From an uncultured Pseudomonadales bacterium (GTDB lineage Bacteria; Patescibacteriota; Microgenomatia; UBA1400; UBA12108): a DNA stretch of 64,000 bases. The stretch is from positions 45 through 64,044 of the forward strand of contig CAZGNX010000001.1 in assembly GCA_964527065.1 (NCBI GenBank), written 5' to 3'. Below the pieces are notes generated by a model. It had not been told where the DNA came from. It ran no database searches and was given only the letters and a program-made list of their open reading frames with translations. A program made the translations under genes and the position numbers. This document shows, one piece after another, positions 16,064 through 40,922 of this stretch (positions are counted from its first letter, which is position 1; each line of letters begins with the position of its first letter).

Positions 16064-17982
16064 TTTTTTTCTTTTGGAGCGGCAGGTAAACTTTGAGCAT
16101 TTAGAGGAGGAGGGGGTTGCTGAGCGTCAGCAGGAGGAGTAAGGGGCGACCTGGGAACACTATTTAACTTGGCAGTTAATGCATTTTGTTTGTCGAGCAA
16201 CTCTTGTGGGTTGGTGGTGATGAGCGCGTGTTCTTCGGGCGAGGCGACCACTTTCATGGCGACGTGGTTCTGACCGGCAAAGAAGAGGGCCTCTCCCACG
16301 TCGGCCGTGAGAAGGAGATGTCGCTCTCCTTGAGAGAGGAAAAAGGTGGTTGCCAGCTTTTCGATGGCGCTACTGCTCTGTTTCATGAGGACCTGAATAC
16401 TGGAGTTGCTGACTATGGCTTTGCCATGGTCGCTCTTGAGGAAGTCTTCAACATCCTGAGTAATGGTGGTTAAACCAAGGAAATATTTGCGGGCGCGTTT
16501 GGCGATGCCATAGAGAAAGGTGGCGGAGTCCTCTGATTTCATGAGGTACCAAGCCTCATCCACCACCAGGAGTCGGCGCTTTAGATCCCGCTTGACCTTG
16601 GTCCAGATGTAGTCGAGGATGATAAAAATGGCGGTGGGGCGGAGCTCATCCTGGAGATTTTTGATCCCAAAAACTGTGAGCTGGGTACCAAAATTGACGT
16701 TGGATTTTTGGGAGAAGATGCCCTGAAACGAACCCTTGACGTATTTCTCTAGGCGATCAGCGAGCCCGCGGGCCACGGCCTCTTCCATGCCGTTGAGAAC
16801 CTTGTAGAGATCTTCCATGAGCGGTGGCTCGAGGGTGTGGGTTGAGGGATCGCGAGTAATCCCCTTCATTTGATAAGTCATCACAAGGGCGCGGTCGAGG
16901 AGCGCTTCTTCTTGGGGCGTCATATCGCCCATCATAATTTTGAGAAGTGAGTGAAGGCTAATAATCTTCATGGCGAGCTCATTTTCGTCGGGCTCTTTCA
17001 TTTGGGGGAGTTCGAAGGGGTTGATGCGGTTGGGGGAGCTAAAGGAGAAGTCAATGTAAGTTCCCTTGATGGCGGAGGAGAGCTTGCGGTACTCGTCCTC
17101 GGGGTCGATGACGATAACCTCCGTGTCAAAGAGGAGCGAGCGCAAGATCTCGAGCTTGACCATGTAGGACTTGCCTGAGCCTGACTTGGCAAACACAACC
17201 ATGTTGGCATTTTCGAGGGTAAAGCGATCAAATACCACAAGACTATCATTGTGTTCGTTGATGCCATACATGAGGCCTTCATTTTGGGTGAGTTCACTAC
17301 TAGTAAAGGGGAAGGTGGTGGCGAGGGAGGTGGTGTCCATGTTGCGGTTCATTTTGAGCTTGTCGAGGCCGGTGGGGAGCGTGGTCTTAAAGCCATCCTC
17401 GATCTGGAGACTCGCGGTTTTGGCGACGATTAAGAGAGCGCCGAGCGCGGACTTGACGTGGTTGGTGACGCGGTCCAAGATATCTTTTTTGTCGTCGCGG
17501 ATCGTGATGTAGAGCCCAAACTGGAAAAAGCGCTCCGATCCTTTGGCCAGTTGTTCTTGGAGTGAGCGGGCGTCTTCGAGTTTGACTTGCGTATCAATAT
17601 TGATAATGCGACCCCGCTGAATGTCTCCTTGGAGCTCGGCCTCCATCTCGGCGATTTTGCGCCGCAAGTCTTCGATAACGCCCTTGCCGTCGACGGGGTA
17701 GATAAACATGGAGATCGAGAGGGAGTGGGGGAAGTTGATGAGCGGGGAGAGCCAGTTGGCGTTCACAAATCTGGGGTAGCCTGCGACGAAGAGAGTGCGG
17801 TAGTAGGTGTCGTTGATTTTGAGATCTGAGAAATCGACCTCGATGGCTTCGGGGGCGATGATATCTTTGACGTTGGTGGTGCCTTGGGACAAGATGGTGA
17901 CGGCGGGAGAGACCTGGGGGCCAGCATCTTTGTCACTCCCCTTTTTGGCACCAAAAAATGACGGCAGGTTCAGTTTGGGCAT
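16060..17982 (-). CDS. virB4: VirB4/TraE/PrgJ-family type IV secretion ATPase
   Basis: 640 aa. Walker A 'VVFAKSGSGKSY', 'NPFE', Walker B 'RLLVVDEAWYLM', C-terminal Pro-rich tail. The stop overlaps the dnaN stop. Confidence 0.85.
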   Translation of the reverse strand: MPKLNLPSFFGAKKGSDKDAGPQVSPAVTILSQGTTNVKDIIAPEAIEVDFSDLKINDTYYRTLFVAGYPRFVNANWLSPLINFPHSLSISMFIYPVDGKGVIEDLRRKIAEMEAELQGDIQRGRIINIDTQVKLEDARSLQEQLAKGSERFFQFGLYITIRDDKKDILDRVTNHVKSALGALLIVAKTASLQIEDGFKTTLPTGLDKLKMNRNMDTTSLATTFPFTSSELTQNEGLMYGINEHNDSLVVFDRFTLENANMVVFAKSGSGKSYMVKLEILRSLLFDTEVIVIDPEDEYRKLSSAIKGTYIDFSFSSPNRINPFELPQMKEPDENELAMKIISLHSLLKIMMGDMTPQEEALLDRALVMTYQMKGITRDPSTHTLEPPLMEDLYKVLNGMEEAVARGLADRLEKYVKGSFQGIFSQKSNVNFGTQLTVFGIKNLQDELRPTAIFIILDYIWTKVKRDLKRRLLVVDEAWYLMKSEDSATFLYGIAKRARKYFLGLTTITQDVEDFLKSDHGKAIVSNSSIQVLMKQSSSAIEKLATTFFLSQGERHLLLTADVGEALFFAGQNHVAMKVVASPEEHALITTNPQELLDKQNALTAKLNSVPRSPLTPPADAQQPPPPLNAQSLPAAPKEKN

Positions 17983-18134
17983 AATAGTCTCAGTATATCA
18001 GCTAGCTGGCAAGTCGGTAACTCAGTGAAATCGGTAGATTATTATTCAGTAAGCCAGCAGATCAGTGTTTCTGTTTTGCTGATGCACGGGGTGGCTGATT
18101 TGCCGAAAAACCGAATAACTGGTTTCACAGCTCA

Positions 18135-18776
18135 TTACTTTGCGGCGACGTTGGGGGCGACGATAGCCTGCTCGTAATCTGAGGCAGTGGTGAATTTTTG
18201 ACCCTTGACCGTGGAGTTGTAAAAACTGTGGAAGAGCTTCATCAAGCTCTGGGAGTTGATTTGTTGGGCGGTTAACCCAATGCGGGTGAGTTGTTTGATG
18301 AGATGATCGCGTTTGGGTTCAAGGTCGGTTTTGGCTTTGAGGATTAAGTCCTCGGTGATTTCGACTTTGCCGGAGAGGGTGACGAGTTGATAGGAGACGA
18401 CAATATAGAATTTTTTATCGAGCACGTTTTGTTCGGTGATTGTCGTTTCAATAAAACTGCGATATTGTTTCATGCGCTCCTTAAGGACTTCGTCTTTGAG
18501 TTTTTTCTCCTGGAGAGAAAGGAGTTCGATATAGGCGCTGATGTCTTTTTTCTCTGATTTGATCACGATTTGGATAGGGAAGGAGAGCGAATTGAGTAGG
18601 CCCGCGTAGGCATAGATGGTCGCGTCCTGCTCTTCTTCGGATAGGAGGCCAAAGTTGATGGCAGAGGTTTGGATGACCAGGCTACAAATGCCGTTTTTGA
18701 GAATGACCAAGTCGTCTTGAACAGTTTCGATGTCGAGATGATCTTGGGTGGTGGCGACAATGACTGATTCGGGCAT
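18135..18776 (-). CDS. hypothetical T4SS-associated protein
   Basis: 213 aa, no TM segment or signature recognised. Its position immediately upstream of virB4 in the same operon supports the call. Confidence 0.5.
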   Translation of the reverse strand: MPESVIVATTQDHLDIETVQDDLVILKNGICSLVIQTSAINFGLLSEEEQDATIYAYAGLLNSLSFPIQIVIKSEKKDISAYIELLSLQEKKLKDEVLKERMKQYRSFIETTITEQNVLDKKFYIVVSYQLVTLSGKVEITEDLILKAKTDLEPKRDHLIKQLTRIGLTAQQINSQSLMKLFHSFYNSTVKGQKFTTASDYEQAIVAPNVAAK

Positions 18777-18944
18777 GAAGCTAGTATAGCGGTTGTTCTC
18801 GCAATCTGCACGACCCCAAACGCAAAAGCGGTCTATCTGCGTCTGCTGACGCAGCGACCTAGAACTCGGCCTAACACGGCCTGCGTAGTTTTTGCAACTT
18901 GTGGCGCGCAGATCACTCGAACAATCTCTTATTAAGAAGGAGAT

Positions 18945-19946
18945 TCAACTACTTGCCCTGAGCTCAATTGGAGATAGGATGGTATTGTTAACGGCGAGCT
19001 GTTGAGGCGGGAAACTGAACCCATCTTTGTCGACCTCGATGACATAGGTCCCAGGACCAAGGGGGGTGGAGGTGTAGAACTGGCCGAGCGAGTTAGTCTT
19101 CATGGCCCTTTGGGGAATGCCGTCGCCGCTGACAATTTGGACGATTGCGTCTGGCACCAATTTGTCTCCTGCATCCACAACCACTCCGGTCACGAGGTTG
19201 GCAACCTTGGGGGAGGCGGGGAGGGTGATGTGTTTGGCAGAGCTAATCGGCACCGTCGCCGCTGATCTGGGGGCAGTGGGCTTGGAAGCGAAGACTATGT
19301 TTTCGGTGGTAGGGGGCGCAGAGACAGTGGTTGGGTTGGGCGCGGACTTGGGTATAGAGATCGGGACAGTTTTTGGAGTTTGGACGATCCGGTTGACCAC
19401 GGCTGACTGTGGGTTGAGTTTGCGGACAACAATTGAGGGCTTGACGACATCAACTGTTTTGGGGGGAGCTGGGGCGGTAGGGGTGACAGGAAGGGAGGTA
19501 AAGAGCGAGTCGAGAGAGGTAATCTTTGTTGATTCTTCAGCGCTCAAGTCTGAGATAGGCGTGCCTACCACTTGAGAGCTGGGAGCTTTGATGGTTTTGG
19601 TAATGGTGGTGACTAGGTCGGGGGGGTGGGCAGTGAAGAGAAACAAACTAGGGATTTTGTTGGTTTTTTGCCAGGTGAAGCGAGTGGGAGCATAAATTGC
19701 TTTGATAAAGTTGACAATCCACTGGTCAAGTGGGCGGTCTTCGATGGGGAAGAAGGCGAGGCCCACCCCCAAGAGGAGCGAGAGAATGACAAGTGGCCAC
19801 TTGAAGATGAAGATAAGGTTGCTGGCAAAGAAGAGGTAGGCAAGCACCATGCCCAGGGCCAGCTCCAAAAATTGCTTGAGCGTCATGTCTCCCACCAGGC
19901 GGAACTGGTACTGGGTCACGTTTTGGGGGATGGGGTGCTGCTGCAT
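18945..19946 (-). CDS. PrgI-like (VirB3-analogue) membrane protein with Pro/Thr-rich linker and C-terminal CarboxypepD_reg-like beta-sandwich
   Basis: 333 aa. TM 'FKWPLVILSLLLGVGLAFFP' + 'IEDRPLDQWIVNFIKAIYAPTRFTW' resembles the PrgI family. C-terminal 'VVDAGDKLVPDAIVQIV...GQFYTSTPLGPGTYVIEVDKDGFSF'. Confidence 0.45.
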   Translation of the reverse strand: MQQHPIPQNVTQYQFRLVGDMTLKQFLELALGMVLAYLFFASNLIFIFKWPLVILSLLLGVGLAFFPIEDRPLDQWIVNFIKAIYAPTRFTWQKTNKIPSLFLFTAHPPDLVTTITKTIKAPSSQVVGTPISDLSAEESTKITSLDSLFTSLPVTPTAPAPPKTVDVVKPSIVVRKLNPQSAVVNRIVQTPKTVPISIPKSAPNPTTVSAPPTTENIVFASKPTAPRSAATVPISSAKHITLPASPKVANLVTGVVVDAGDKLVPDAIVQIVSGDGIPQRAMKTNSLGQFYTSTPLGPGTYVIEVDKDGFSFPPQQLAVNNTILSPIELRASS

Positions 19947-19991
19947 ACAGTTTGAGTATACGGTATGCGGTAGAGAGTATGAAGTATGGGA

Positions 19992-20618
19992 TCAAGGAGA
20001 TGGAGACGGACTGGCAATAACATACCTGTGGGCTTCGGCGTCACCGCCCATGCTCTTTACCCACTCCTTGATTTCGTCAATGGCTTCTTGCGAAGTTATA
20101 TTGAGATTTTTGAGGGTGATCTCTAGTGTCATGGGGGAGGAGTAGACCACGCGGTAGAGTGGGGTGGTGTAGGGGGTGGATTGGGCAAGAGGATAGTCGC
20201 GCGCTAGCTCATCCTTCATGTTTTTGATGAGCAGCGGGTCGGTTTGAGAAGCTTGGGTGGTGAAGGAGTAGTCAGGAAGCTTTTGGTCTTTCCACTTGAT
20301 TTGCAGGAGATATTTTGTTTGTGGTTGAAGAAGAAGAGCAGGCTGTGCTCGTAGGCTTGTGGGGCTGCTTTGACTAAGCGTCCAGGAGATGCTTGGAACA
20401 GAGGCGAGTGTAAAATCAGCCGCAAAAACCTCTTCATCAAAAGTCAATAATGGTTTGATCTCGAGGCTTACGGCAAGGGCATTATGTGTGGGATTAGCTG
20501 CTACAATTTGGGGAGGGCTCGCCATCGACTTGTTCAAAAACACAAAAATAGCCAAAACGACCCCTAGGCCAACAGCCATGATTACATATAAGAGCCTTGA
20601 TCGTAAAAAGCGCTGCAT
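19992..20618 (-). CDS. membrane-anchored hypothetical protein (T4SS locus)
   Basis: ~208 aa. N-terminal TM 'LLYVIMAVGLGVVLAIFVFL', then a Ser/Thr-rich extracytoplasmic region. Translationally coupled to the upstream 945-aa gene. Confidence 0.5.
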   Translation of the reverse strand: MQRFLRSRLLYVIMAVGLGVVLAIFVFLNKSMASPPQIVAANPTHNALAVSLEIKPLLTFDEEVFAADFTLASVPSISWTLSQSSPTSLRAQPALLLQPQTKYLLQIKWKDQKLPDYSFTTQASQTDPLLIKNMKDELARDYPLAQSTPYTTPLYRVVYSSPMTLEITLKNLNITSQEAIDEIKEWVKSMGGDAEAHRYVIASPSPSP

Positions 20619-23455
20619 CATATTCTTCTTAGGTGTCCTGCCACACCAGTTTTAGGGAGACAATTATTGGCGCTAACACAACCATTGCACACTTGGTTGG
20701 CGTCTACCAGACAGACTAAGGCTCCCGCATCTTGCGACATTATACCAATATGGCCCGGGGCGCCGTCGCTACAAGTGCCTGAAGAATTAAAGACAATGGG
20801 GTCTCCGGGCCTGGCCCCACTGAGACCAGACACAAACTGGTATCCTGCGGCACCGCTTGTGTAGTTGCATGCATTTTTCCCTTCGAGACTCCCCCCAGCG
20901 CAGGCGATAGAAGCTTGGACAAAACCAACACATTGGAGATAGGTATAGGAGGTGGCAGAACGCTCGATGATTGCGGCAACTTCTGGTGCGACGGCCTTAG
21001 CGAGGAGGCAACCGATTCCTGTGGTTTGGATTCTTGCGCCTGTTACTGCGGGTCCGTAGCAGGCAGTAAGATAGTCGACGAGACAATTAGCACAACTCAA
21101 GACAGAGTTCCCTGGTGATTGTTCCACGGGGGCGGTCGTCTCTGCGCTTGCTTCGTCATCGTTACAAAAGATGGCGGCGAATAGTTCTGGTCCTGAATCG
21201 ATGTGAGAAGTTATGTTGAATACCTGGAAGAGTAGAAACACCCCTGCAATTAGGGCGCCAACGGCGATGAGAGCAGGGAGAAAAACAGTGGAGAAGAGGG
21301 TTGTTACTAATGTCCCAATAGCACCGATTAAGGCCGAGCCTGTGGCAATTACCCAGGCAACTACGGCGGCGGGAATTGCGACAACTGCGGAGGAAGCAAT
21401 GGATAAGATGGCTGGTAGGCGGCGGATGATCTTGTCTCGGAAGCCGTTTTGGTTGGTGATGAATTCCCAAATGCCCTTGAGACCTGCCCCAATCGCCATA
21501 AGCCCAGCTTGGATCAAAATAGTGGTTCCACCGGAAAGAGTTCCTGCCAGGAAAGACGCTACAACTTTGCCGATTGCGCCATTACTCAGCTTGGTGGCAA
21601 TCCCTGGTGCTATTTTTGTAAACCCACTCCATAACTTGGAGGCTACGGCGGCTTTGACAGCGGTAATGTCCTTTTTATTGAGTATCGTGCGCGCGCTCCA
21701 ATCTAAGATGTTTCCCCACTTTTTTTCGACAAAGTTAAAACTGGCATGACTCCAACTGCCGCCGGCCTGTACGAACCCTTTGGAAAAATCTGAGATGTGG
21801 GTAAAGATGCCGGCATACCACTTGCCGCTTGTACTGGCCTTGGTGGCGACCCCCGTAGACCAGTTAAGGATTTTGTCGGCGATCCAGAGCTGTCCAAGCG
21901 TTGTTTTGTCGGAGATAAGCCTGGCGGGGTTGAGCAGAGGAATCTTTTCTTCGAGCTGTTCCCACTTTTCTGCTAAGTAGTTGAAGGGAGAATGGATAAA
22001 ATCATCGACAGCCCAGATAGTTTTGCCGATTTTTTGAGAGAAACGATCGATGGGAGCTTTGGTGGCGGCATACGTCCCCCTGGCCCGACCAATCTTGTCC
22101 CGCACAGAGAAGAGCACGTCATGATCCAAGGCATATTTGTAGCGCTCGTATTCCGAGCGATATTTAAAGTGATGAACAATCTCAATAATGGCTTCAAAAT
22201 TGGCGTCTTTGCCTTCTTTTGCAAGCTCGGCTTGTAAGAATGCTGTGAGATCTTTGGTTTTATACTTCTCCTCTAGCATGAGACCACTACGGTCTAGGTC
22301 TTTACGCGACCGCCAAGGAGTGTCAAGGGAGACCCCAATGTCTCTGGTTAAACTAAGTGTATGGAGGAGGCGCGGATCACTTTCGAGTACGTTGCCACCT
22401 AAGATTTTGGCCACTTCGTTTTGACGCACTTCTTCGATCAGGGGAGCGAGTGAGGAGAGCTGGTCGAAGGCGGTATCAGGGAAACCGGCCGACTTGAGTG
22501 ACTCCCGGATAAGGACTTCGCCGGAGACAAATCCTGAGGTGGTGGTTGCGATGATGTTTTTACGAAGTGATTCAACGAGCTTGTCCTTGTTTAGATCATG
22601 ACCGGCGACAAGATCAACTAGAGTGGGGATGTCGGCAATGGTTGTTAGCTGGGGGAGGGAGGATAAGCGGGACATATCATCACGGAAGGCTTTTTGTCCT
22701 TCGGGACTACCCCCATACTCCTTTTGAATGACCGCCTCAATGGCGCTCGTGAGTTCGGGTAGCTCTTGATCGGCCTTGGCAGAGTAAGCAAGGTGGCTAG
22801 CATTGTTCAAGGCACCATCACCGGATCTCAGCTGGATTAACTGGGTAATCTCCTCGGCGATAGCGATGGTGCTCTTGCCTGGCGCCGGGCGCAGATTGGC
22901 GGCATCGGCTGCAAGGAGTGCTGAGAGCACCGAAAAAGTGTAGGGGTCTCCTGCAAAGCGCTTTAAGTACTGAGTTTGCTGGATGGCGGTCGTGAGTTTG
23001 CCGAGGATTTTGTCGTTGATTAACTTATATTGCAGATTACGGAGTTCGTTGGCTTTTTTATATGTCTGTCCTTCAGCTGTCTCAGGGCGTAAGTTCTTGA
23101 GAGGGGTGTCTTTGGCTGAGTCAAGAATGGAGCGGAAGTTAGCGGCGGCTTCGCGTGACTTGCCTTGTACGTTGATCTCGAGATAGTTAAGCAGTCGCGA
23201 TGCCCTGATTTTACGCGAGCCCCGGTCGCCCATTGGTAGACTAACCTCGTTGTCCCTTGCCCAAGCCGTAATCTCTTGCCAGGCTTCTTCGGGGGAGAGT
23301 TTGAGTTTTGTTTTATCTGGTAAGTCGAGTTCTAAGGGACGGTTGCTGAGGATGAGCTTGAGGTAGTAGGTGAGGAGCTGGTGGTTACTATTTAAGTCTC
23401 GAGCCAAGAGATCTTGGAGATAGCGACGTTGAACTTGTGAGATTGTACTGGCCAT
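20618..23455 (-). CDS. T4SS-associated membrane protein with C-terminal CHAP-domain peptidoglycan hydrolase (VirB1 functional analogue)
   Basis: 945 aa. ~640-aa N-terminal helical domain, then a TM cluster ('LPAILSIASSAVVAIPAAVVAWVIATGSALIGAIG...'). C-terminal 'YTYLQCVGFV' (catalytic Cys) and 'GAPGHIGIM' (His) of CHAP. Confidence 0.65.
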   Translation of the reverse strand: MASTISQVQRRYLQDLLARDLNSNHQLLTYYLKLILSNRPLELDLPDKTKLKLSPEEAWQEITAWARDNEVSLPMGDRGSRKIRASRLLNYLEINVQGKSREAAANFRSILDSAKDTPLKNLRPETAEGQTYKKANELRNLQYKLINDKILGKLTTAIQQTQYLKRFAGDPYTFSVLSALLAADAANLRPAPGKSTIAIAEEITQLIQLRSGDGALNNASHLAYSAKADQELPELTSAIEAVIQKEYGGSPEGQKAFRDDMSRLSSLPQLTTIADIPTLVDLVAGHDLNKDKLVESLRKNIIATTTSGFVSGEVLIRESLKSAGFPDTAFDQLSSLAPLIEEVRQNEVAKILGGNVLESDPRLLHTLSLTRDIGVSLDTPWRSRKDLDRSGLMLEEKYKTKDLTAFLQAELAKEGKDANFEAIIEIVHHFKYRSEYERYKYALDHDVLFSVRDKIGRARGTYAATKAPIDRFSQKIGKTIWAVDDFIHSPFNYLAEKWEQLEEKIPLLNPARLISDKTTLGQLWIADKILNWSTGVATKASTSGKWYAGIFTHISDFSKGFVQAGGSWSHASFNFVEKKWGNILDWSARTILNKKDITAVKAAVASKLWSGFTKIAPGIATKLSNGAIGKVVASFLAGTLSGGTTILIQAGLMAIGAGLKGIWEFITNQNGFRDKIIRRLPAILSIASSAVVAIPAAVVAWVIATGSALIGAIGTLVTTLFSTVFLPALIAVGALIAGVFLLFQVFNITSHIDSGPELFAAIFCNDDEASAETTAPVEQSPGNSVLSCANCLVDYLTACYGPAVTGARIQTTGIGCLLAKAVAPEVAAIIERSATSYTYLQCVGFVQASIACAGGSLEGKNACNYTSGAAGYQFVSGLSGARPGDPIVFNSSGTCSDGAPGHIGIMSQDAGALVCLVDANQVCNGCVSANNCLPKTGVAGHLRRI

Positions 23456-28911: not shown

Positions 28912-31551
28912 CTAGAACCCTGGTAGCTTGATAATATCACCCGCGACAATACGCAAAATCGAGACCGAGAAAATAAGGAAGAGGAGTCCGGTGACGGCGG
29001 CACCAAAGAGTTCTTTGCCTTTTTTGAGTTTCTCGTCATTGTCTCTGGCGGTCATGATTTGGAAGATGGCGATAAACATCACCACGATAGCGATACCGCC
29101 GGCTAGGCCGACCAAGAAAGCAAAAAGCGCGGTGCCAAAGGCCTCTCTCGTGTAGGGGATACAACCCAGGGCGGTGGAGAGTGATTGCGGGCCACAACTC
29201 GTGGGGAAGAAGCCGAAGGTGCCAGGCTCGTTGTCTGGTGTTGTGGGGGGGATTAGTGGGGCGGGAGGGGGAGAGGGGAGCTCGGTATTTTCATAACCAC
29301 CCTTGGTCATGTTGTTATACACGCTGAGAGCAACAGTAAACGAACCAGGTCTTTCAAAGATTTGAGGGGCGCAGGCGGTGCGGTCGGCACAGTAGAGGAG
29401 ATACATCGAATCGTGTTTGCCATCGAGGAAGCTGGTCGGGTAGGGATCGTCCTCGCCTTCAAAAGCGCGGGGACAGCCGCCATAGGGGATGGGATAAGGA
29501 TAACCGAGTTGACAGTTACTGTTGCCACCACCGTTGTAGCGGGAGAGAGCGGTGATGGCAGTCTGCGCATCCCCAATTGCCCCGCCCACCTTGCCTTTGA
29601 GATGTTCACCCGCATAGACGGCAGTCTCAAGGAGGGAGCGGAAGATCTTACCGCCCGCATCGGGCTCGGGAGTGCCGAGAGCCCGCCCAGAAACGAGTGA
29701 GCCATTGGGGTTATTGGCCGCCTCGACAAAGTGGATACCCGCCAAGATTTCACACGGTACGCCGGTCTCCTTTTCGGCGGCGGCATAGGTGTTCATTAGT
29801 TCGGCGCTCAAATTGGGTTGGATAAACGTCGAGAAGTAGCTCTCGCCCTTGGCGCTCGCGCTCTGATAATTACTACTGCCAAGCAGTTCACCAAACAGCC
29901 GTCCGTCACATTTACCTTCTGGTACCACCTGGGCGGTATCGCAGCCATTGCGGGTACCCAGAGCGTACGCCTCAACGCTAGTCTCAAGCTGAGCGGAAAA
30001 CATGTTGTCAGCACAGGTGTAGTAGCCATAATGACGCCTACCATCGGCGGGACCTGAGTATTTGCCTGCTTTGAGAAGATCAAGGTTGTCGTCTACGACA
30101 TTGCTGAGTTTAACATTAAACTCTTTGACTGATTCTAGCTCGGCCAAGGTATCGCGAGTGTCGTAGGTGTATTGCTTAATCTCTGCGATACTTTGACCCA
30201 TTGCGTCTGGAATTGTCAAGAGGTGATAAACGACAGGTTCAACGTCGTCAATCTGAGCGCCCCAAATGAGATTGATGAGAGCTTGTAGAAGGTTGCCGGT
30301 GGGGAATGCCGCGGCCTTTTCTTTTTGTACCTCTGGTTGGAGGCGGTAGCCAGGGCAGTTTTTATCTCCTCCGAGAAAAGATGGTGTTTCCAAATAGTCG
30401 TAGATTTGGTAAAAGGCGCCGTAGGAACCAAAGTGATATTTGAAACAGGGATTGCTCGCCATAAGCTCTGGAATGAGGCGTGCCTTAATCTTTTTGGCGG
30501 TGGCGTTTGGCGCCGCAGAGCCAGCAAAGCGAATTAGCTGGTTGGACGAGGCAAGGTCGCGAATTATTTTGCTTGCCTCATCTAGTGGATAGGTGAGAAG
30601 TAGATCGTCAAGGGCGGCGCCAAAGGCTTGGGAGATAGAGATGTCGCCGTAGAGCGCGTTGGAGTTGCCCTCCAACGCAAGGCTGCTAAAGGGGCAGTTT
30701 TCTCCGGGGCAACAGCGATCCCAGACGCAGATACTGGCGTGGACATACCCCTGGCGAAACGAGGGGCTATACATCGGGACTTGGGAGAGGTCCCTAAACC
30801 ACTCAGGTGGGGTAGTTTGTGAAGCTGCCTCTTCTATAGCGTCACAGGCTCGTTTACGGGAGCTTGAGGCATCGGAGACGGCATCGAGATTGCCGGCGTT
30901 TAAGAAAAAATCGTCCGTTGCTTCCACTATCACCTGTCCAGCCCCTGCCAATCCTCCAGGTATTTCGTCGCGGATCTCGAGTAAGGTTTTGCCGTTCTGG
31001 GTTGTGTAGCCCCAGTCGACCCAGCCAAGTGGCCACTGCCCAGTCTCAGCTAGAGTGTTCTTGGTTTGCTTGGCACGAATCACGACCATGAGCTGTTTGG
31101 TCATGATCTCGCACTGAGTAAGCCCGAGGAAGTGGGTACCCCAAGTGATCGCGTTATCTGTACCCATGTTGCCATACAAGAGGGCTTCGTTTTGGATTTT
31201 GGGGAAAACGAGGCGAGTGAGTGGACGAGCGCCCGTCTCAGCTCCCGTTTCTTGATTCAGTGTCCGATTCTCAGCGGAAAAGTCCGTAGCTTTGATATCG
31301 GAGCCAACGCGGGGTTTTTTCTTGTACTCACATTCGCCCACGCTAACCCCACTCTTGGTAGGATCTTTGATGGCGGTACAACTACCATTGCCTGAAGAGA
31401 CTGTACTATGATAATCACCTCTGCCATTGGCCACCTTGCGCTCACAGAGATCAACCTCTCCACCATCACAGCCGTCAATGAGCTCGCCTGATTGATTATC
31501 GCGCTCACAATAGTCATCTCTACGATCAGCACCTTCGTACTCACAGACCAT
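28912..31551 (-). CDS. giant secreted fusion protein: Cys-rich region + SLT-like lytic transglycosylase motif + C-terminal VirB2/TrbC-like pilin module. Preceded in frame by a signal-peptide ORF cut off by TAG
   Basis: 879 aa from the Met at 31551. 'ILAGIHFVEAANNPNGSLVSGRALG' resembles the SLT catalytic 'ESSFNPNA...GA.GLMQ'. The last ~80 aa ('LGCIP...GLAGGIAIVVMF...KKGKELFGAAVTGLLFLIFSVSILRIVAGDIIKLPGF') are nearly identical to ORF 38811..39248. Confidence 0.7.
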   Translation of the reverse strand: MVCEYEGADRRDDYCERDNQSGELIDGCDGGEVDLCERKVANGRGDYHSTVSSGNGSCTAIKDPTKSGVSVGECEYKKKPRVGSDIKATDFSAENRTLNQETGAETGARPLTRLVFPKIQNEALLYGNMGTDNAITWGTHFLGLTQCEIMTKQLMVVIRAKQTKNTLAETGQWPLGWVDWGYTTQNGKTLLEIRDEIPGGLAGAGQVIVEATDDFFLNAGNLDAVSDASSSRKRACDAIEEAASQTTPPEWFRDLSQVPMYSPSFRQGYVHASICVWDRCCPGENCPFSSLALEGNSNALYGDISISQAFGAALDDLLLTYPLDEASKIIRDLASSNQLIRFAGSAAPNATAKKIKARLIPELMASNPCFKYHFGSYGAFYQIYDYLETPSFLGGDKNCPGYRLQPEVQKEKAAAFPTGNLLQALINLIWGAQIDDVEPVVYHLLTIPDAMGQSIAEIKQYTYDTRDTLAELESVKEFNVKLSNVVDDNLDLLKAGKYSGPADGRRHYGYYTCADNMFSAQLETSVEAYALGTRNGCDTAQVVPEGKCDGRLFGELLGSSNYQSASAKGESYFSTFIQPNLSAELMNTYAAAEKETGVPCEILAGIHFVEAANNPNGSLVSGRALGTPEPDAGGKIFRSLLETAVYAGEHLKGKVGGAIGDAQTAITALSRYNGGGNSNCQLGYPYPIPYGGCPRAFEGEDDPYPTSFLDGKHDSMYLLYCADRTACAPQIFERPGSFTVALSVYNNMTKGGYENTELPSPPPAPLIPPTTPDNEPGTFGFFPTSCGPQSLSTALGCIPYTREAFGTALFAFLVGLAGGIAIVVMFIAIFQIMTARDNDEKLKKGKELFGAAVTGLLFLIFSVSILRIVAGDIIKLPGF

Positions 31552-31644
31552 TAGTGGTTGATAGTCACGAGTGAGATCGCGGTTTTCGTAGACTTTGAAA
31601 TATGGTGCTCGTATGAAACGAAAGAGACTGAATAGCTCAAACTA

Positions 31645-31773
31645 CTCCTCGCGCTCGGGGTTGCCTTCAATAGAGAAGGGGGGGAAGGGGTCGATGGCCA
31701 GGGAAAGAGGAGGAAATAGGAAATAGGAAATAGGAAATAGGAATAATACGAAAAAACGCAAGAGCTTTTTCAT
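31645..31773 (-). CDS. signal-peptide mini-ORF (43 aa) in frame with the 879-aa gene but separated by TAG (31642-31644). Possible pseudogene 5' part or readthrough site
   Basis: Hand translation: MKKLLRFFVLFLFPISYFLFPPLSLAIDPFPPFSIEGNPEREE*. 'LA|IDP' matches the cleavage context of the 145-aa paralogue ('AALAIDP'). Frame stays open from 31641 to the Met at 31551. Confidence 0.5.
31712..31746. repeat. (GGAAATA)4 + GGAATAA heptanucleotide tandem repeat within the signal-peptide ORF
   Basis: Read directly. Same unit as 10607-10634. Encodes 'FPISYFLFP'. Confidence 0.9.
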
Positions 31774-31775: not shown

Positions 31776-32072
31776 CTAGTTAAAGCCAAATCTAAACTCA
31801 GTGACACTGGCTCCTGTTGTATTTTGGATGAATAAGAGGATGAGCCAGGAGAGAATTGAGAGCGCGATACCCACCACTGCGAGAGTAATTGTCTGCTTGC
31901 CTCCGGCCATACCCTTGGGATCACCACCTGAGGTAAGAATCTTGAAACCGCCAATGAGGAGCATGATAAAGGCAACTATGCCAATGAGGGGGATCATGGC
32001 CTCAAGGATGTTGCCGAAGTAGTCGGAGAGACAAGATAGTTCGGCGGCGGAAGCGGTATCGTTGCATGGCAT
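31776..32072 (-). CDS. VirB2/TrbC-like pilin family small membrane protein (paralogue 1)
   Basis: 98 aa. Two hydrophobic helices flanking 'LTSGGDPKGMAGG'. Same architecture as its neighbours. Confidence 0.5.
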   Translation of the reverse strand: MPCNDTASAAELSCLSDYFGNILEAMIPLIGIVAFIMLLIGGFKILTSGGDPKGMAGGKQTITLAVVGIALSILSWLILLFIQNTTGASVTEFRFGFN

Positions 32073-32280
32073 ATGGGATGATTATAGCAAAGAGCAAGGG
32101 TCGGATGATCACATTAATTTTATCTCACTGACTAAAATTGATCTCAAATACGATTGCTCGCAGGCTTCTCGTCTGCACCTGTTCGACTAGACGGCATACT
32201 CGCATTTTCAGGCGAATTTTCGCTCAATTTCTTAACGTATGTTCGTAAAATTAACGATGATCATCCTCACGCTAGGAGTC

Positions 32281-32631
32281 TTAGTAGGCTTTGGGTGGGG
32301 TGATGTTGTCGTTCAATATGCTGATACCGAAGAAGTATTGAATGACAAGCATGATGGCCCAGGCGCTCGCCACAACCGCCAAGCCAACGAGAGCGGCAGT
32401 GATACGATCACGAGCTTCCTGCGTTTTGCCTTTGTCACCGCCGGAGGTGATCCATTGGATGCCACCCCAAATAAGATACATGAAGACGAGCAGGGCAGAT
32501 ATAAGTAGAGCACCCTGGACAGCCCCTTTGATGAGCGTGCCAATGTTGGTGATGGCGACGTTTTCGGGTTTGCCAATTGAGAGTTCTGGAGCGCCTGGGG
32601 CTTGAGCGTAAACTTTGATTGAATCAAACAT
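32281..32631 (-). CDS. VirB2/TrbC-like pilin family small protein (paralogue 2)
   Basis: 116 aa. 'GGIQWITSGGDKGKTQEARDRI' loop between two hydrophobic helices. Confidence 0.55.
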   Translation of the reverse strand: MFDSIKVYAQAPGAPELSIGKPENVAITNIGTLIKGAVQGALLISALLVFMYLIWGGIQWITSGGDKGKTQEARDRITAALVGLAVVASAWAIMLVIQYFFGISILNDNITPPKAY

Positions 32632-32680
32632 ATCTTTCTCCTTATTTGTACTATCTAGTTATAGTGTAGTCAATTATTGA

Positions 32681-33049
32681 TTATTGTGCAATACCTATTC
32701 CAAAGAAATAATCTAGCAGGAGATAGACTGCCCAAGCAGAGGCGACAATGGCGAGTCCAATGATGCCGTTGGTGATTTTGGCGCGCGCTTCGTCCAGTTT
32801 GCCCTTGTCACCACCGGAACTAATCCACTGCAGACCTCCATAGATAAGATAGAGGAGCGTGGCAAGGCCAGCCACAAGAATAATGGCAGAGATGGTTTTG
32901 CTGACGAATGAGCCAAGATCGGTGTTGATGGCGACGCGTGATTCGACCTGATCACCTATACTGACGTTGAATGAGCCGGCTTGGGCATGAGCTGAGCTAG
33001 GAAAGAGGAAAGAGGAAAGAGGAAATAGATACAGTAAAATTTTTTTCAT
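32681..33049 (-). CDS. VirB2/TrbC-like pilin family small protein (paralogue 3)
   Basis: 122 aa. Signal peptide 'MKKILLYLFPLSSFLFPSSAHA'. 'GGLQWISSGGDKGKLDEARAKI'. Confidence 0.55.
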   Translation of the reverse strand: MKKILLYLFPLSSFLFPSSAHAQAGSFNVSIGDQVESRVAINTDLGSFVSKTISAIILVAGLATLLYLIYGGLQWISSGGDKGKLDEARAKITNGIIGLAIVASAWAVYLLLDYFFGIGIAQ

Positions 33050-33053
33050 ATGC

Positions 33054-33443
33054 TCAGCCGGCAGTGGGCCAGATTATATTGAGTATATTCATCCCGATGG
33101 CCATCTCAATAAACTTGATAATGACATAAGAGGCAGCGAGGAGGGCGAGTCCCACGAGACCTTGGGTGATTTTGCCCCTAGCTTCGTCGATCTTGCCTTT
33201 GTCACCCCCGGCCGTGATCCACTGTAAGCCGCCGTGCAAAAAGTAGAGGATAAACGCGAGCCCACCTACAAGAATGATGGTCTGCCAAAGAGTAGCGATC
33301 GTGATAGCAAATTGTTGTGGGGAAGCATCGGGTGAGTCACCTCCTGGTACGGCGGTGTTGGTGATGGCGGCATGCGCCAGAGACGCTCTTGTATAAAGTA
33401 TGGAGTATAGGGTATATAGTATCGGGACTATTTTGTTTGTCAT
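33054..33443 (-). CDS. VirB2/TrbC-like pilin family small protein (paralogue 4)
   Basis: 129 aa. 'GGLQWITAGGDKGKIDEARGKI'. N-terminus 'ILYTLYSILYT' is encoded by a degenerate AGTATRG heptamer repeat (33395-33425). Confidence 0.55.
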   Translation of the reverse strand: MTNKIVPILYTLYSILYTRASLAHAAITNTAVPGGDSPDASPQQFAITIATLWQTIILVGGLAFILYFLHGGLQWITAGGDKGKIDEARGKITQGLVGLALLAASYVIIKFIEMAIGMNILNIIWPTAG

Positions 33444-33445
33444 TT

Positions 33446-33805
33446 TTAGTTCACTGTAAGGCCGTTAATAAGTGCGCCAGGGTTGAGGATGTCGAGCCCC
33501 AGTGCTTTGCCCACAATCCAGACGATAGCATAAGAAACAGTGACTACAATGATGCCTGTTGCGCCTCCTGTCATCATGCTTTTGGCTTTGTCGATCTTGC
33601 CTTTGTCACCACCGGCCGTGATCCAATTGAGGCCACCCAGGAGGAAATAGAGGGCGAAGGCTATGCCAGCCACGAGAGTGAGGATTACAAGAATATTGCT
33701 GATGAGTTTTTCCACGGCACTTGTTGACCCCTCGATGCCTGTCCCTGGTTGGTAGCCACCGGGAGTGGTGATGTTGCCAAATTGGAGCGCGAGGTATTTG
33801 TTCAT
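33446..33805 (-). CDS. VirB2/TrbC-like pilin family small protein (paralogue 5)
   Basis: 119 aa. 'GGLNWITAGGDKGKIDKAKSMM'. Confidence 0.55.
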   Translation of the reverse strand: MNKYLALQFGNITTPGGYQPGTGIEGSTSAVEKLISNILVILTLVAGIAFALYFLLGGLNWITAGGDKGKIDKAKSMMTGGATGIIVVTVSYAIVWIVGKALGLDILNPGALINGLTVN

Positions 33806-33809
33806 ATGT

Positions 33810-34148
33810 TTAGTTGGGTGATCCTGGTCCGACTATATTGGGGGAGAGAATTGCGGTCGCAGAACCAAAGAGGAGGAAAGAGACTATGCCAGTGACGGCA
33901 GCCGCGGCTACCATGATGGCGAGGCCGATGAGGGACATGTTGATTGAGTAGAGCGCTGACTCGATCTTTTTAGTATCTCCGGCGGCGCTAATATAACTAA
34001 AACCAGCTATCATGAGGTTGAAGAAAGCGAATAGTCCGGCGGCGGCAAAAATAATCGTAATAACATTGGTTATAAAAGTAGGGAGGCCAGACTCAACGGA
34101 ACCGTAGGCGGTGATGGGGGAATCGATACTACCAAATGTGCTTGGCAT
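33810..34148 (-). CDS. VirB2/TrbC-like pilin family small protein (paralogue 6, divergent)
   Basis: 112 aa. 'SYISAAGDTKKIESAL' between two hydrophobic helices. Confidence 0.5.
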   Translation of the reverse strand: MPSTFGSIDSPITAYGSVESGLPTFITNVITIIFAAAGLFAFFNLMIAGFSYISAAGDTKKIESALYSINMSLIGLAIMVAAAAVTGIVSFLLFGSATAILSPNIVGPGSPN

Positions 34149-34152
34149 AAGT

Positions 34153-34473
34153 TTATATATTACTGTTTAGTATTGATAGTCCTGTCACCACTTGGATTAG
34201 TTGGATAATCCAGTAAGAGGCGAAGAGGACTAACAGCCCCATTATAGCAGAGGTGATAGTTTTGGTACCGTCTTTGATTTTGTCAGTGTTGCCGGCATTG
34301 CTGATGATGGTAAAGCCGCCAAAGAGGATCATAAAGAAGATGACAATACCTCCGGCGATATAGACATTGGGGAGAATGTTGTTGATAAGGGAGCTCGTGT
34401 CTGGATACTGGGAACTGGCGGGGGTACCCTGGAATTTGAGTTTTTCACCAATATTGACGGTAGAAACTGGCAT
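34153..34473 (-). CDS. VirB2/TrbC-like pilin family small protein (paralogue 7, divergent)
   Basis: 106 aa. 'GGFTIISNAGNTDKIKDGTK' between two hydrophobic helices. Confidence 0.5.
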   Translation of the reverse strand: MPVSTVNIGEKLKFQGTPASSQYPDTSSLINNILPNVYIAGGIVIFFMILFGGFTIISNAGNTDKIKDGTKTITSAIMGLLVLFASYWIIQLIQVVTGLSILNSNI

Positions 34474-35047: not shown

Positions 35048-35267
35048 ATTTATCGCTGAGTTGGAACAAAAAGCCAAAGAACAGCAAAAATTGGTGGATA
35101 CTCAGATCATTCCTGGTTGGGCACGCGGCTTAGGTAATTGGCTGGCGGTGAACCCTTGGCGACTGGTAATACCAGTCGCCGGTATTGTGTATGGAGTATT
35201 GCGTATAGTGTACGGGGAACAATTTAGAGAATTAATATTAGGACTGTTTGGGGGATTTGCCAGATGA
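35031..35267 (+). CDS. putative anti-sigma factor (single-pass membrane protein)
   Basis: 78 aa. Overlaps the sigma gene end. Cytoplasmic helical N-terminus then TM 'LVIPVAGIVYGVLRIV'. Confidence 0.4.
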   Translation: MKPENRFIAELEQKAKEQQKLVDTQIIPGWARGLGNWLAVNPWRLVIPVAGIVYGVLRIVYGEQFRELILGLFGGFAR

Positions 35268-38493: not shown

Positions 38494-38808
38494 CTATGAG
38501 ATGATGTTGACTTTGAAGATGACCTGGAGGATTTGAGCGATCCAGTAGGCGAGGAAGATGACAAAGAAGCCGGTGAGGGCGCCGGTCACCATTTTTTTAC
38601 CTTTTTCTTGTGACTCTTTGTCGGCGGCACCGGCGAGCATGGTAAAGCCTCCAAAGACTAGCATTCCAAGTAAGATTAGTCCTGCGATCGTCAGTAGATA
38701 AGGAAGAAAGCCACCAATGATGCCACCAAGGCTATCGGTGTCTGCAAGACTGCCACTGCCCAAGCCGATTGCTTTATTGAGAGATGTATAGTCGATGAAT
38801 TCTGGCAT
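38494..38808 (-). CDS. VirB2/TrbC-like pilin family small protein (second locus)
   Basis: 104 aa. 'GGFTMLAGAADKESQEKGKKMV' between hydrophobic helices 'LLTIAGLILLGMLVF' and 'GALTGFFVIFLAYWIAQIL'. Confidence 0.5.
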   Translation of the reverse strand: MPEFIDYTSLNKAIGLGSGSLADTDSLGGIIGGFLPYLLTIAGLILLGMLVFGGFTMLAGAADKESQEKGKKMVTGALTGFFVIFLAYWIAQILQVIFKVNIIS

Positions 38809-38810: not shown

Positions 38811-39248
38811 TTAATTAATGAACCCTGGTAGTTTGATGATATCACCTGCAACTATTCGTAGAATAGACACGGAGAAGATAATAAACAAAAGTCCGGTGAT
38901 CGCTCCAGTAAATAATTCTTTGCCCTTTTTAACTTGTTCGGCATTATTGCCACCAGTCATAATCTGGATAGTTGCAATGAGCATAATGATGATGGAGATA
39001 CCTCCCGCTAAACCTGTAAGAAAGGTGAGGAGGGCGGAGGAAAATCCGGCAGTAGAGGTGGGGATACAGCCAAGACCCGTGTTGATCTGTGGGTTTGTGG
39101 CGGAGCTACCGGGGCACCCACTAGTGGGGTCGATGGCGAGGGCCGCAGGGGCGAGTATAAAGTATAGAGTATAGAGTATGGAGTATAGAGCTGGGCGAGC
39201 GTGTGTTAGGATATGGGTATGGTTTCTCTCTGGAAAAAGCTTGTTCAT
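38811..39248 (-). CDS. free-standing pilin module paralogous to the C-terminus of the 879-aa protein
   Basis: 145 aa. 'GLGCIPTSTAGFSSALLTFLTGLAGGISIIIMLIATIQIMTGGNNAEQVKKGKELFTGAITGLLFIIFSVSILRIVAGDIIKLPGFIN'. Signal-peptide codons lie on an (AGTATAG)5-type heptamer repeat (39153-39189). Confidence 0.6.
   Translation of the reverse strand: MNKLFPERNHTHILTHARPALYSILYTLYFILAPAALAIDPTSGCPGSSATNPQINTGLGCIPTSTAGFSSALLTFLTGLAGGISIIIMLIATIQIMTGGNNAEQVKKGKELFTGAITGLLFIIFSVSILRIVAGDIIKLPGFIN
39153..39189. repeat. AGTATAA/AGTATAG/AGTATAG/AGTATGG/AGTATAG heptanucleotide tandem repeat in a signal-peptide coding region
   Basis: Read directly. Encodes 'LYSILYTLYFIL' on the minus strand. Confidence 0.85.
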
Positions 39249-40922
39249 ATAGTCACCGCAGTCGTTCTGATACTAGGCATGATTCTATCATACGAAGCGG
39301 TAGTGAAGGCGGAATCGCTAGAAGAAATTGAGAAACAAATGGCTGACTTGCAGCAGCAAATGGAGCAGTCGGTCAAGGCCACAACGCCGCTCGAGTCAGA
39401 AGTGGCCAAGCTTAACAAACAAATTGGCGGGATACAGGCACAAATCAAGGAATCAGGAATTAGAATAGAGGAACTAGAGGTAAGTGTCGCGGAGCGAGAT
39501 AAGGCGATAGCCTCGCAGTATATTGTGCTGTCGGCAAAAGTCCGGGACTTGTACAAAAAGACCAGCTTATTTTCTCCCTTGCTCGTATTTGTGTCCTCGC
39601 GCTCGGCAGGAGAGCTAACACGAGGGCTAGCCTATAAGTCGGCAACGGCAGATGAAGACAAAAATCTGATTGTGACTATCACAAGAGACATACTCCAGCT
39701 GGAGGATGACAAACAGAAGATTGAGGCAGATCGTATACGGCTCGCAGGACTCCAAAAGAAACTTGATAGCCAAAAAGCTTTCTTTGACCGTGAGATTGCT
39801 GGGGCAAAGAAATATCAGGCAGAATTATCGGGCAAAATTGCTGCTCTCTCGGCTAAACAGCAGGCAATCTTGTCGGAGAAATCAGGGACGTTCCAGACTA
39901 CTGTAGGAGATGTGCCGCTAGCGGATGACTCCGCGAGCCGCCCTGACTATAATCCAGGTTTTTCGCCGGCTTTTGCCGCGTTCTCATTTGGGGCACCTCA
40001 CTTTAAAGGCATGAGCCAATACGGAGCGTTTGGGCGTGCAAAACAAGGGCAAAGTTTTGAGCAAATTCTCAAAGCCTATTACGGAGGAGGGATCGAGATT
40101 AAAGATCATAACCCCGAAGCGCAGATTGTGGTAGAGGGTTATGGTACTTACTCACTCGAAGAATATGCCAAGCGCATCTATGAAATGCCAGGGTCATGGG
40201 GAGACGAGGGCGGTATGGAAGCACTTAAAGCCCAGGCAATAGCGGCGCGGAGTTATGCACTGGCGCGGGGAGGATCTATTTGTGCGACTGAGGCCTGCCA
40301 AGTGTTTAAACCAGCTCCAAAAGGGGGGAGGTGGGAACAGGCAGTGAATGAGACTCGCGGAAAAGTGGTTTATGCGGGAGGTGGGCCTTTTTCGACCTGG
40401 TATGCTTCGACTTCGGGAGGGTATCAAGAATCGTACACTAGCAATGGACATAACACCCCCGGATTTTGGGATACCCCTTCGGGCCAAGGTGGATGGACTG
40501 GGCAGGCGTATGAAAAAGTGGCGGGGAGTCCGTGGTTCTACAAAGCATGGTACAAAACCAGATCAGGAGACGCCTGCGGACGTAGTCATCCATGGCTCAA
40601 CTCAGAAGAAATGGCCGATATTCTGAATGCATGGGTAGTTTTGTTTCAAGGTGGGGGAGACTCGGGACGGGTGACACCAGAATCATCTTGCTGGGGGGGC
40701 AATCCATATAGCAAGGCCGATCTCCAGGGGATTGGCGGATTCACCAGTGTTTCTGGGGTGAGCGTGACATATGGGAATAACGGAGTCACAGCCAATGTGA
40801 CGTTTGAGACGAATAAATGGAGTACGACAATCTCGGGGGTTGATTTTAAAAAAGCGTTTAATCTGAGAAGTCCAGGGAGGATATCGCTTAAATCTGGTCT
40901 TTTCAATATTGAAAAGAAATAA
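39213..40922 (+). CDS. SpoIID/LytB-domain protein with N-terminal TM and coiled coil
   Basis: 569 aa. 'GMEALKAQAIAARSYALARGG' matches the conserved SpoIID/LytB core. Coiled-coil-like residues 30-220. Confidence 0.65.
   Translation: MGMVSLWKKLVHIVTAVVLILGMILSYEAVVKAESLEEIEKQMADLQQQMEQSVKATTPLESEVAKLNKQIGGIQAQIKESGIRIEELEVSVAERDKAIASQYIVLSAKVRDLYKKTSLFSPLLVFVSSRSAGELTRGLAYKSATADEDKNLIVTITRDILQLEDDKQKIEADRIRLAGLQKKLDSQKAFFDREIAGAKKYQAELSGKIAALSAKQQAILSEKSGTFQTTVGDVPLADDSASRPDYNPGFSPAFAAFSFGAPHFKGMSQYGAFGRAKQGQSFEQILKAYYGGGIEIKDHNPEAQIVVEGYGTYSLEEYAKRIYEMPGSWGDEGGMEALKAQAIAARSYALARGGSICATEACQVFKPAPKGGRWEQAVNETRGKVVYAGGGPFSTWYASTSGGYQESYTSNGHNTPGFWDTPSGQGGWTGQAYEKVAGSPWFYKAWYKTRSGDACGRSHPWLNSEEMADILNAWVVLFQGGGDSGRVTPESSCWGGNPYSKADLQGIGGFTSVSGVSVTYGNNGVTANVTFETNKWSTTISGVDFKKAFNLRSPGRISLKSGLFNIEKK

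Follow-up and report, generated by a model that had tools for sequence, protein, structure and literature searches.

Most Patescibacteria genomes that carry VirB2 lack a recognisable VirB1, and it has been suggested that other glycosidases may substitute for it in their type IV secretion systems (T4SSs) (PMC12102498). The locus described here raises the question of whether the missing wall-cutting enzyme could be carried by a pilin. We analysed a stretch of 64,000 nucleotides (contig CAZGNX010000001.1 of assembly GCA_964527065.1; hereafter the window) from an ultrasmall bacterium of the candidate phyla radiation, of Woesebacteria type, in which the last gene of a T4SS pilin operon encodes a large fusion protein. 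From its N- to its C-terminus, this protein consists of a signal peptide, a Cys-rich beta domain, a helical region, a lysozyme-like domain, a Pro-rich tether and a VirB2-like pilin hairpin. The system itself, a Patescibacteria T4SS whose pilins are VirB2-like, is known; the component of which we found no description is a cryptic lysozyme-like domain joined to a pilin. Taking sequences and structure models together, the best reading is that the fusion would be a VirB1-like muralytic enzyme mounted on a VirB2-like pilin; whether it would be located in the pilus or at the pilus base is a matter of inference. The more specific proposal, a secreted minor pilin of ~950 amino acids (aa) with a predicted enzymatic head, incorporated in low copy and probably at the tip by the T4SS of Microgenomatia/Woesebacteria, is the one we favour, with a little less than even confidence. 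The initial annotation of this locus knew of no description of such a fusion, and we agree: the Patescibacteria T4SS literature and full-text searches yielded no case in which a VirB2 pilin is joined to a hydrolase or to any other large domain, and the published pilin surveys deal with small pilins only (Wang et al. 2023, PMC10633639; Quinonero-Coronel et al. 2025, PMC12102498).

The gene is longer than it had been taken to be. An open reading frame (ORF) of 879 aa is indeed present at 28912-31551 on the reverse strand, and the public annotation (P0001, 879 aa) is this same truncated ORF, but the full gene comprises ~952 codons (28912..31773, reverse strand) and was called at 879 aa because one in-frame TAG interrupts it in the window. 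The upstream extension is in the same frame and is covered in alignments with orthologues of 920-977 aa. Its start ATG, at 31773, lies 2 nucleotides past the stop codon of the pilin gene that precedes it and opens a Sec-type signal peptide, MKKLLRFFVLFLFPISYFLFPPLSLA (31696..31773, reverse strand), followed by IDPFPPFSIEGNPEREE, the single TAG and 30 in-frame codons up to the called Met; the 879-aa ORF itself has no signal peptide. An equivalent N-terminus is found in all the aligned orthologues, 13 of 13 carrying both the signal peptide and a conserved PFPPFS.EGNP motif, and cleavage would follow SLA, as judged by eye. Since the orthologues align through the whole stretch, the Cys-rich segment that the initial annotation had placed at the N-terminus is internal, at about residues 75-155 of the native protein. 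Residue numbers below are those of the 879-aa ORF.

The C-terminus of the fusion is a complete mature VirB2-like pilin module (28912..29205, reverse strand; residues 783-879 and the stop). It has a disulfide loop (C786/C797, with LGCIP), a first transmembrane (TM) helix at 802-833, a charged loop, a second TM helix at 839-873 and an invariant C-terminus ending in LPGF, and AlphaFold2 (AF2) models it as a long helical hairpin of these two helices joined by a short basic loop, ...RDNDEKLKKGKE... This end had been described as a near-copy of a free-standing 145-aa pilin encoded at 38811-39248 on the reverse strand, and so it proved: composition-adjusted BLASTP gave 60% identity over 110 residues (E 2e-38), and a separate local alignment 69 identical residues of 110. 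The free protein is a paralogue of the fused module, whose match begins at the mature N-terminus (IDPTSGCPG in the free pilin, FFPTSCGPQ in the fusion), ends at the last residue and spans the Cys loop before the membrane (PTSCGP...LGCIP), both hydrophobic helices, the charged loop KKGKELF and the tail AGDIIKLPGF. The LGCIP and KKGKELF motifs singled out earlier both fall within the alignment, and because loop, charged and tail motifs are all shared, the similarity extends beyond hydrophobic, low-complexity TM sequence. At the DNA level the two are only 63% identical, with different codons at 39 of the 69 identical residues; together with a nonsynonymous divergence (dN) of 0.30 and a saturated synonymous divergence (dS) of 2.6, this bears out the proposal of an old duplication held under purifying selection.

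The module is a true pilin paralogue, but it is a VirB2-like T4SS pilin, of the PF18895 (T4SS_pilin) type, and not a type IV pilin. The Pfam model scores both the fusion (18 bits against a cut-off of 26.6, E 0.003) and the free 145-aa pilin (E 1e-4) below threshold. Four more small pilins were scanned; three lie above the cut-off and the fourth, at 33054-33443, just below it with 24.1 of the 26.6 bits. Several fusion orthologues, including P0003, P0004, P0014 and P0034, have a precomputed PF18895 match. Moreover, the modules of both kinds, fused and free, combined in one profile, match a profile of 16 array pilins by hhalign (95.8%, E 8e-9, 87 columns), and the module aligns in register with nine other pilins. 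Small pilins have their signal peptide directly before the mature pilin; in the fusion ~770 residues lie between the two, so it is a pilin-domain fusion and not a canonical pilin.

Judged by sequence, fused and free modules together make up a pilin subtype of their own (LGCIP...LPGF), distinct from the array pilins. Family-wide, mean identity is 77% among free copies, 62% among fused copies and ~54% between fused and free, while either form is only 21-23% identical to the eight other pilins of the window. In a neighbour-joining tree the 94 free copies form a single clade, and a database search found free LPGF-type copies to be common in Woesebacteria and Collierbacteria. With their 77% mean across genomes, the free LPGF pilins have diverged far less than the array pilins, which are ~20-30% identical to one another; this difference suggests a conserved core role for the LPGF subtype and a variable, possibly host-facing one for the array pilins. 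In the orthologous locus L001, the syntenic counterpart of the free 145-aa pilin (1448-2245, forward strand) is 265 aa long, with the same signal-peptide start, a module 70% identical and, between the two, a Cys-rich insert of ~125 aa; about a dozen relatives of 168-241 aa were seen among the database matches. Taken with the fusion, the L001 insert indicates that this subtype tolerates an N-terminal cargo of about 0, 125 or 770 residues.

Upstream of the pilin module lies the domain that gives the fusion its predicted activity (29287..29910, reverse strand; residues 548-755). The initial annotation had seen an SLT-like motif here, in the segment 'HFVEAANNPNGSLVSGRALG'; this segment and the Cys/Asp/Gly-rich one are both present as quoted, and the likeness to GH23-type enzymes is recovered by fold, though by no sequence profile. 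AF2, run with an alignment of 61 sequences, gives residues 550-760 a predicted local distance difference test (pLDDT) score of ~90, and a model of residues 545-765 alone reaches a pLDDT of 90.8 and a predicted template modelling score of 0.90; the modelled domain has a lysozyme-like alpha+beta fold. When the full model was compared with the PDB by Foldseek, the best E value was 0.55, which is without significance, and nearly all matches were GH23 enzymes (goose-type lysozyme, MltE, MltF, MltC, Slt and phiKZ gp144). A fold comparison scored MltF (9.3) and goose-type lysozyme (9.2) highest, followed by SltB1 (7.8), Slt70 (7.2), MltD (7.1), FlgJ (6.8), MltE (6.7), MltC (6.6), effectors of type VI secretion systems (6.1-6.3), EtgA (6.1) and the Tn916-type Orf17 (5.9).

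Within this domain, conservation and the secondary structure of the models point to E610 (codon 29722..29724, reverse strand) as the candidate catalytic Glu. It stands at the C-terminal end of helix 600-611 of the full model (helix 56-66 of the domain-only model), with short strands, a beta region, after it. It is kept in 57 of the 61 sequences of alignment A1 and is invariant both in a family alignment of 22 sequences and in the broad alignment A3, whose 31 very diverse relatives have a mean column identity of 33% and share seven invariant columns (E610, G622, G676, C680, D701, Y704 and M716). We take E610 as the putative equivalent of the GH23 catalytic Glu. An SRYNGGGN stretch resembling the AYNAG of SLT domains is the only motif likeness of this kind. 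Exhaustive profile searches placed the domain in 279 clusters (at the 50% identity level) of proteins of 200-2400 aa, usually at the C-terminus and sometimes accompanied by GH5-like, NAGPA or Peptidase_C39_2 domains. By its sequence, then, it is a modular orphan family absent from Pfam, of which the pilin fusion is one branch. Three fusion homologues, P0064-P0066 (43-47% identical), have unrelated-looking sequence at ~545-765 that contains 'AIWIHESGASNY', similar to the canonical SLT E-S motif; neither hhalign against the domain profile nor phmmer against the PDB gave a match for this region, and a domain swap at the lysozyme position is possible.

The remainder of the ectodomain is conserved as well. 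The Cys-rich segment (31312..31551, reverse strand; residues 1-80) is a beta-rich domain with six Cys (C3, C15, C28, C36, C58 and C74) that are invariant or nearly so in A1, and is modelled with beta strands at a pLDDT of 69-90; no fold or family match was found for it. A central, mostly helical region (29911..31143, reverse strand; residues 137-547) is strongly conserved, for example at WPLGWVDWGY, and has further conserved Cys; residues ~137-547 gave no specific match. Neither by sequence nor by fold did the fusion show similarity to helical bundle proteins of the VirB5 family (the VirB5/TrbJ tip-adhesin type). The 24 Cys of the 879-aa ORF, many of them invariant, fit an extracytoplasmic, disulfide-bonded protein. 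Between the lysozyme-like domain and the pilin module runs a flexible Pro-rich linker, TELPSPPPAPLIPPTTPDNEPGTFGFF (29206..29286, reverse strand; residues 756-782), with pLDDT below 50 for residues 765-782.

The fusion is neither an isolated chimera nor a stranger to its locus. As the initial annotation had proposed to look for, orthologous fusions exist in relatives: there are at least 68 homologues in Microgenomatia, most of them 920-977 aa long and 43-77% identical, the named ones coming from Woesebacteria or Microgenomates. The locus is a monoderm-type (MPF-FATA-like) T4SS near dnaA, and genes for VirB4, a TrsD-like protein and a PrgI/VirB3-like protein lie 9-15 kb from the fusion gene on the same strand. 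Directly upstream of the fusion are seven divergent tandem VirB2-like pilin genes (31776..34473, reverse strand; PF18895 and alignment). In L001 and L002 the fusion gene is likewise the last of such a tandem array, and the pilin-fusion junction is also kept in L003. The order shared by L001 and L002 is an extracytoplasmic function (ECF) sigma gene, then seven pilins, the fusion, a protein of ~180 aa and a polytopic one of ~500 aa, then a 1093-aa protein, and then a ~920-aa protein and PrgI; it is kept although their fusion proteins are only 43-47% identical. A predicted muralytic-type domain is thus part of a T4SS gene cluster and is conserved along with it. This agrees with the published picture of Patescibacteria T4SSs as MPF-FATA-like systems near dnaA, with arrays of 2-11 VirB2 genes, particularly common in Microgenomatia, with few detectable VirB1 or VirB6 homologues and, in Microgenomatia, with components too divergent for hidden Markov models (HMMs) (PMC12102498).

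From these elements we could propose the following course of events. VirB2 pilins, once their signal peptide is cleaved, have the N-terminus outside, the hairpin in the membrane and the basic loop in the cytoplasm. The fusion would be exported by Sec and cleaved, and its C-terminal hairpin would insert in the same way, leaving a disulfide-bonded ectodomain of ~770 aa and the N-terminus outside and the Lys-rich loop in the cytoplasm. The pilin-assembly machinery of the T4SS would then treat the hairpin as a pilin, as might be expected from a hairpin that has lost none of the features that the free LPGF pilin has outside the membrane; these retained features, and the terminal place of the gene in the pilin array, are the reason why we favour the pilin-assembly pathway. 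Incorporation into the pilus would be in low copy, most likely as the first, tip subunit. The tethered lysozyme-like domain would finally cleave peptidoglycan glycan strands where the pilus or channel crosses the wall, which would be the wall of the producing cell as the pilus leaves it and possibly that of the host on contact. The pilus-tip hydrolase or adhesin first suggested for this gene is in this respect a plausible function.

Several observations weigh against this proposal. The window copy of the gene has a premature TAG. No GH23/SLT profile matches the lysozyme-like domain in Pfam (whole protein, and eight domain sequences at E<=10), NCBIfam or PHROGs, and HMM searches of the PDB with three alignments of increasing breadth returned only noise for it, so that the SLT resemblance is detectable by fold alone. 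The canonical E-S and GLMQ motifs of SLT domains are absent, the Glu preceding A or G, and the putative equivalence of E610 with the catalytic Glu rests on its position in the secondary structure. In addition, no fold or family could be assigned to ~540 aa of the conserved ectodomain, a separate 945-aa protein of the locus, with a weak CHAP match, could be the VirB1 analogue, and an N-terminal load of 770 aa may be incompatible with filament packing. Pilus formation has been left open even for the small VirB2-like pilins of Patescibacteria (PMC12857230).

The main alternative is one to which we would give a substantial but clearly minority chance: the hairpin could serve as an anchor or docking tag only, never drawn into a filament, and the protein could be a membrane-anchored autolysin of VirB1 type that opens the producer's own peptidoglycan beside the T4SS, as PrgK, TraG (pIP501), TcpG and CwlT do in Gram-positive conjugation. 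Hydrolases of monoderm T4SSs are membrane-anchored, the ectodomain is about eight times the size of the pilin module, and a flexible Pro-rich tether would suit reach from the membrane into the wall. That the T4SS of this locus is itself of the monoderm, MPF-FATA-like kind (PMC12102498) speaks for the same view. An anchor, however, needs no conserved extramembrane loop, no disulfide loop, no invariant LPGF tail and no 54% identity across the family to free pilins; the terminal position in the pilin array and the N-terminal insert tolerated in the free pilin of L001 also point to a pilin-like fate, although none of these arguments is decisive.

A different objection concerns only the copy in the window, which could be a dead pseudogene whose TAG severs the signal peptide from the 879-aa ORF, so that nothing functional would be made here; we regard this as unlikely, if not by a wide measure. 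The TAG is codon 44 (31642..31644, reverse strand) and aligns with a Tyr codon (TAT) of the closest orthologue, which has GAA TAT TTT opposite GAG TAG TTT of the window, with both flanks in frame; the position is Tyr in the three closest of the 13 aligned orthologues. TAG is a normal stop in the window, where the 37 long ORFs end in TAA (16), TAG (12) or TGA (9) and the upstream pilin gene itself ends in TAG. We therefore consider stop reassignment or programmed readthrough unlikely, with TAG ending 12 of 37 long ORFs and the orthologue having TAT. A slippage-prone 7-nucleotide repeat just upstream of the TAG would also fit decay. On the other side, only one third-position change separates the TAG from a sense codon, the 2.86 kb are otherwise without stops or frameshifts, the DNA alignment to the orthologue of L003 is in frame throughout, and both flanks are conserved like the rest of the gene, with 89% nucleotide identity to L003 in the 5' stretch. 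A single change between conserved flanks is consistent with an error in the sequencing or consensus of a metagenome assembly, or with a mutation that is very recent or polymorphic. From the sequence, the window copy would carry either one nonsense mutation or an erroneous consensus base, and be either freshly inactivated or mis-called; its status has no bearing on the function of the fusion family.

The repeat in question is a perfect tandem array of AGGAAAT (4.7 copies, 31711..31743) within signal-peptide codons 11-21 of the fusion gene. Of the five strongest tandem repeats of the window, four have a unit of seven nucleotides, in 3.9-5.4 copies (31711-31743, 32999-33025, 39153-39190 and 10605-10631), three of them perfect and that at 39153-39190 with 87% matches, and three lie in 5' ends that encode signal peptides, namely those of the fusion gene, of the pilin at 32681-33049 and of the free LPGF pilin. 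A change in copy number would shift the frame, and phase variation is therefore conceivable; the pentamer repeats in the signal peptides of Neisseria opa genes are a comparable frame-shifting case. The repeat of the fusion gene is absent from the orthologous loci L001 and L002, and we rejected a conserved phase-variation device on that ground.

The weakest alternative, improbable in our view, is a non-catalytic adhesin whose lysozyme-like fold binds glycan or peptidoglycan as part of a host-recognition head with the Cys-rich and helical domains, in a role like that of the VirB5/CagL tip adhesins: it would account for the missing SLT motifs, for ~540 aa of conserved ectodomain without enzymatic signature and for the failure so far to identify an adhesin in the T4SS loci of Patescibacteria (PMC12102498), but the invariant Glu makes it less likely, E610 at its canonical helix end forming with D701 and Y704 an active-site-like pattern kept across a broad and divergent family, and the domain occurs elsewhere beside glycosidase- and peptidase-type domains (GH5-like, NAGPA, Peptidase_C39_2).

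Returning to the minor pilin with an enzymatic head, it is tempting to speculate further that this VirB2-type subunit, carrying a cryptic muralytic domain and a host-recognition head, is a pilus-tip warhead with which Microgenomatia breach the wall of their hosts in episymbiosis, although we think it rather unlikely that all of this holds. In Ca. Southlakia epibionticum, the one Patescibacterium tested genetically, the T4SS and its VirB2-like pilin array are essential for epibiotic growth (PMC10633639; reviewed in PMC12857230). Were the speculation true, the fusion would be without known precedent, as an enzyme-bearing protein, among conjugative-type pilins and would explain the apparent lack of VirB1 in these T4SSs, and if its head reaches the host wall, ultrasmall episymbionts would have a new way of attacking their hosts. 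More broadly, the architecture suggests how episymbionts could place a wall-cutting enzyme at a secretion pilus, and the family is a candidate for the missing enzyme, recognisable by fold and invisible to sequence profiles. As a natural chimera that ties predicted wall lysis to a pilin, it also offers a testable handle on whether Patescibacteria pilins leave the membrane, its large ectodomain being an accessible target for tags or antibodies.

The other genes of the locus complete the picture. The T4SS follows dnaA and dnaN (13425-16063) and has a core at 16060..23455, all on the reverse strand: VirB4 (16060-17982; 640 aa, NCBIfam CD1110-type, E 6e-119), a 213-aa TrsD-like ORF (18135-18776; TrsD E 3e-5), a PrgI/VirB3-like gene (18945-19946; PrgI E 5e-7), a Big_5 protein (19992-20621) and the 945-aa protein (20618-23455), whose C-terminal CHAP match is weak and sub-threshold (E 3e-4) and for which no similarity to the fusion was found, so that paralogy between the two was rejected. 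The 213-aa ORF resembles the N-terminal part of VirB4 (TrsD/TraD family), which the 640-aa VirB4 lacks, and the two share a frame. We rejected a VirB4 split by general gene decay, since the ORF matches a separate TrsD family and three stops lie between them; this looks like a natural two-gene arrangement. Between the core and the fusion gene are a 1099-aa protein without Pfam or NCBIfam match (23499-26798, forward strand) and, on the reverse strand, a 524-aa polytopic membrane protein without match in Pfam, NCBIfam or PHROGs (26802-28376) and a 169-aa protein without family match (28400-28909), both in an order conserved in L001 and L002. The 524-aa protein is possibly the 'missing' VirB6 of Microgenomatia.

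Beyond the pilin array, and divergent from it, a 178-aa sigma-factor-like gene (34511-35047, forward strand; by synteny with Sigma70_r2 genes of L001 and L002) is followed by small membrane-protein ORFs of 78 and 101 aa, the whole spanning 34511-35569 (forward strand) in the same arrangement as in L001 and L002; judging from this arrangement, they are candidates for a sigma/anti-sigma regulator of the pilin-fusion operon. Between the two pilin clusters, at 35755-38346 (forward strand), lie isoprenoid-related genes assigned by synteny with L001 and L002 (NUDIX-type, AA_kinase-type, possibly an isopentenyl phosphate kinase, and a UppS-like prenyltransferase), to which L002 adds genes for HMG-CoA reductase, HMG-CoA synthase and thiolase. 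The second cluster comprises the free LPGF pilin and, directly downstream of it, a 104-aa PF18895 pilin (38494..38808, reverse strand; E 1.3e-9). A divergent SpoIID-domain gene (39213..40922, forward strand; PF08486, E 4e-13) overlaps the 5' end of the gene for the free LPGF pilin; the overlap recurs in L001 (1-1477, reverse strand, against 1448-2245, forward strand). SpoIID is a family of peptidoglycan lytic transglycosylases. Counting the fused lysozyme-like domain, the LPGF subtype has two links to wall-lytic enzymes, one by fusion and one by adjacency.

How, then, does the fusion compare with known systems? Enzymes joined to assembling structures are familiar from FlgJ, the flagellar rod cap fused to a muramidase, in which the enzyme is C-terminal to the cap domain, whereas in the fusion it is N-terminal to the pilin. 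Similarly, EtgA, a lytic transglycosylase of type III secretion systems, binds the inner rod protein EscI; both cases belong to the flagellum or to type III secretion and not to a T4SS, and their partner modules are unrelated. Phage tail-tip lysins (T7 gp16, phi29 gp13, Andhra gp10) and type IV minor pilins with large domains (PilY1- and CofB-type) also come from unrelated filament systems, and in comparison with them the tip localisation of the fusion is only something we infer. Related in proposed function are the VirB1-type hydrolases (A. tumefaciens VirB1, PrgK of pCF10, TraG of pIP501, TcpG, CwlT and the Tn916-type Orf17), from which the fusion differs in having no detectable SLT/PF01464 or TrsG/CD419 similarity, in carrying ~540 extra conserved residues without an NlpC/P60 or CHAP partner in the chain, and in being mounted on a full VirB2-like pilin and not on a single N-terminal TM anchor. 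Related in form are the VirB2/TraA/TrbC pilins and the PF18895 arrays (PMC10633639, PMC12102498), with which the fusion shares the two-helix hairpin, the basic loop, the same operon and a signal peptide ahead; it departs from them in the ~770 residues placed between signal peptide and pilin, and in belonging to a distinct and much more conserved pilin subtype.

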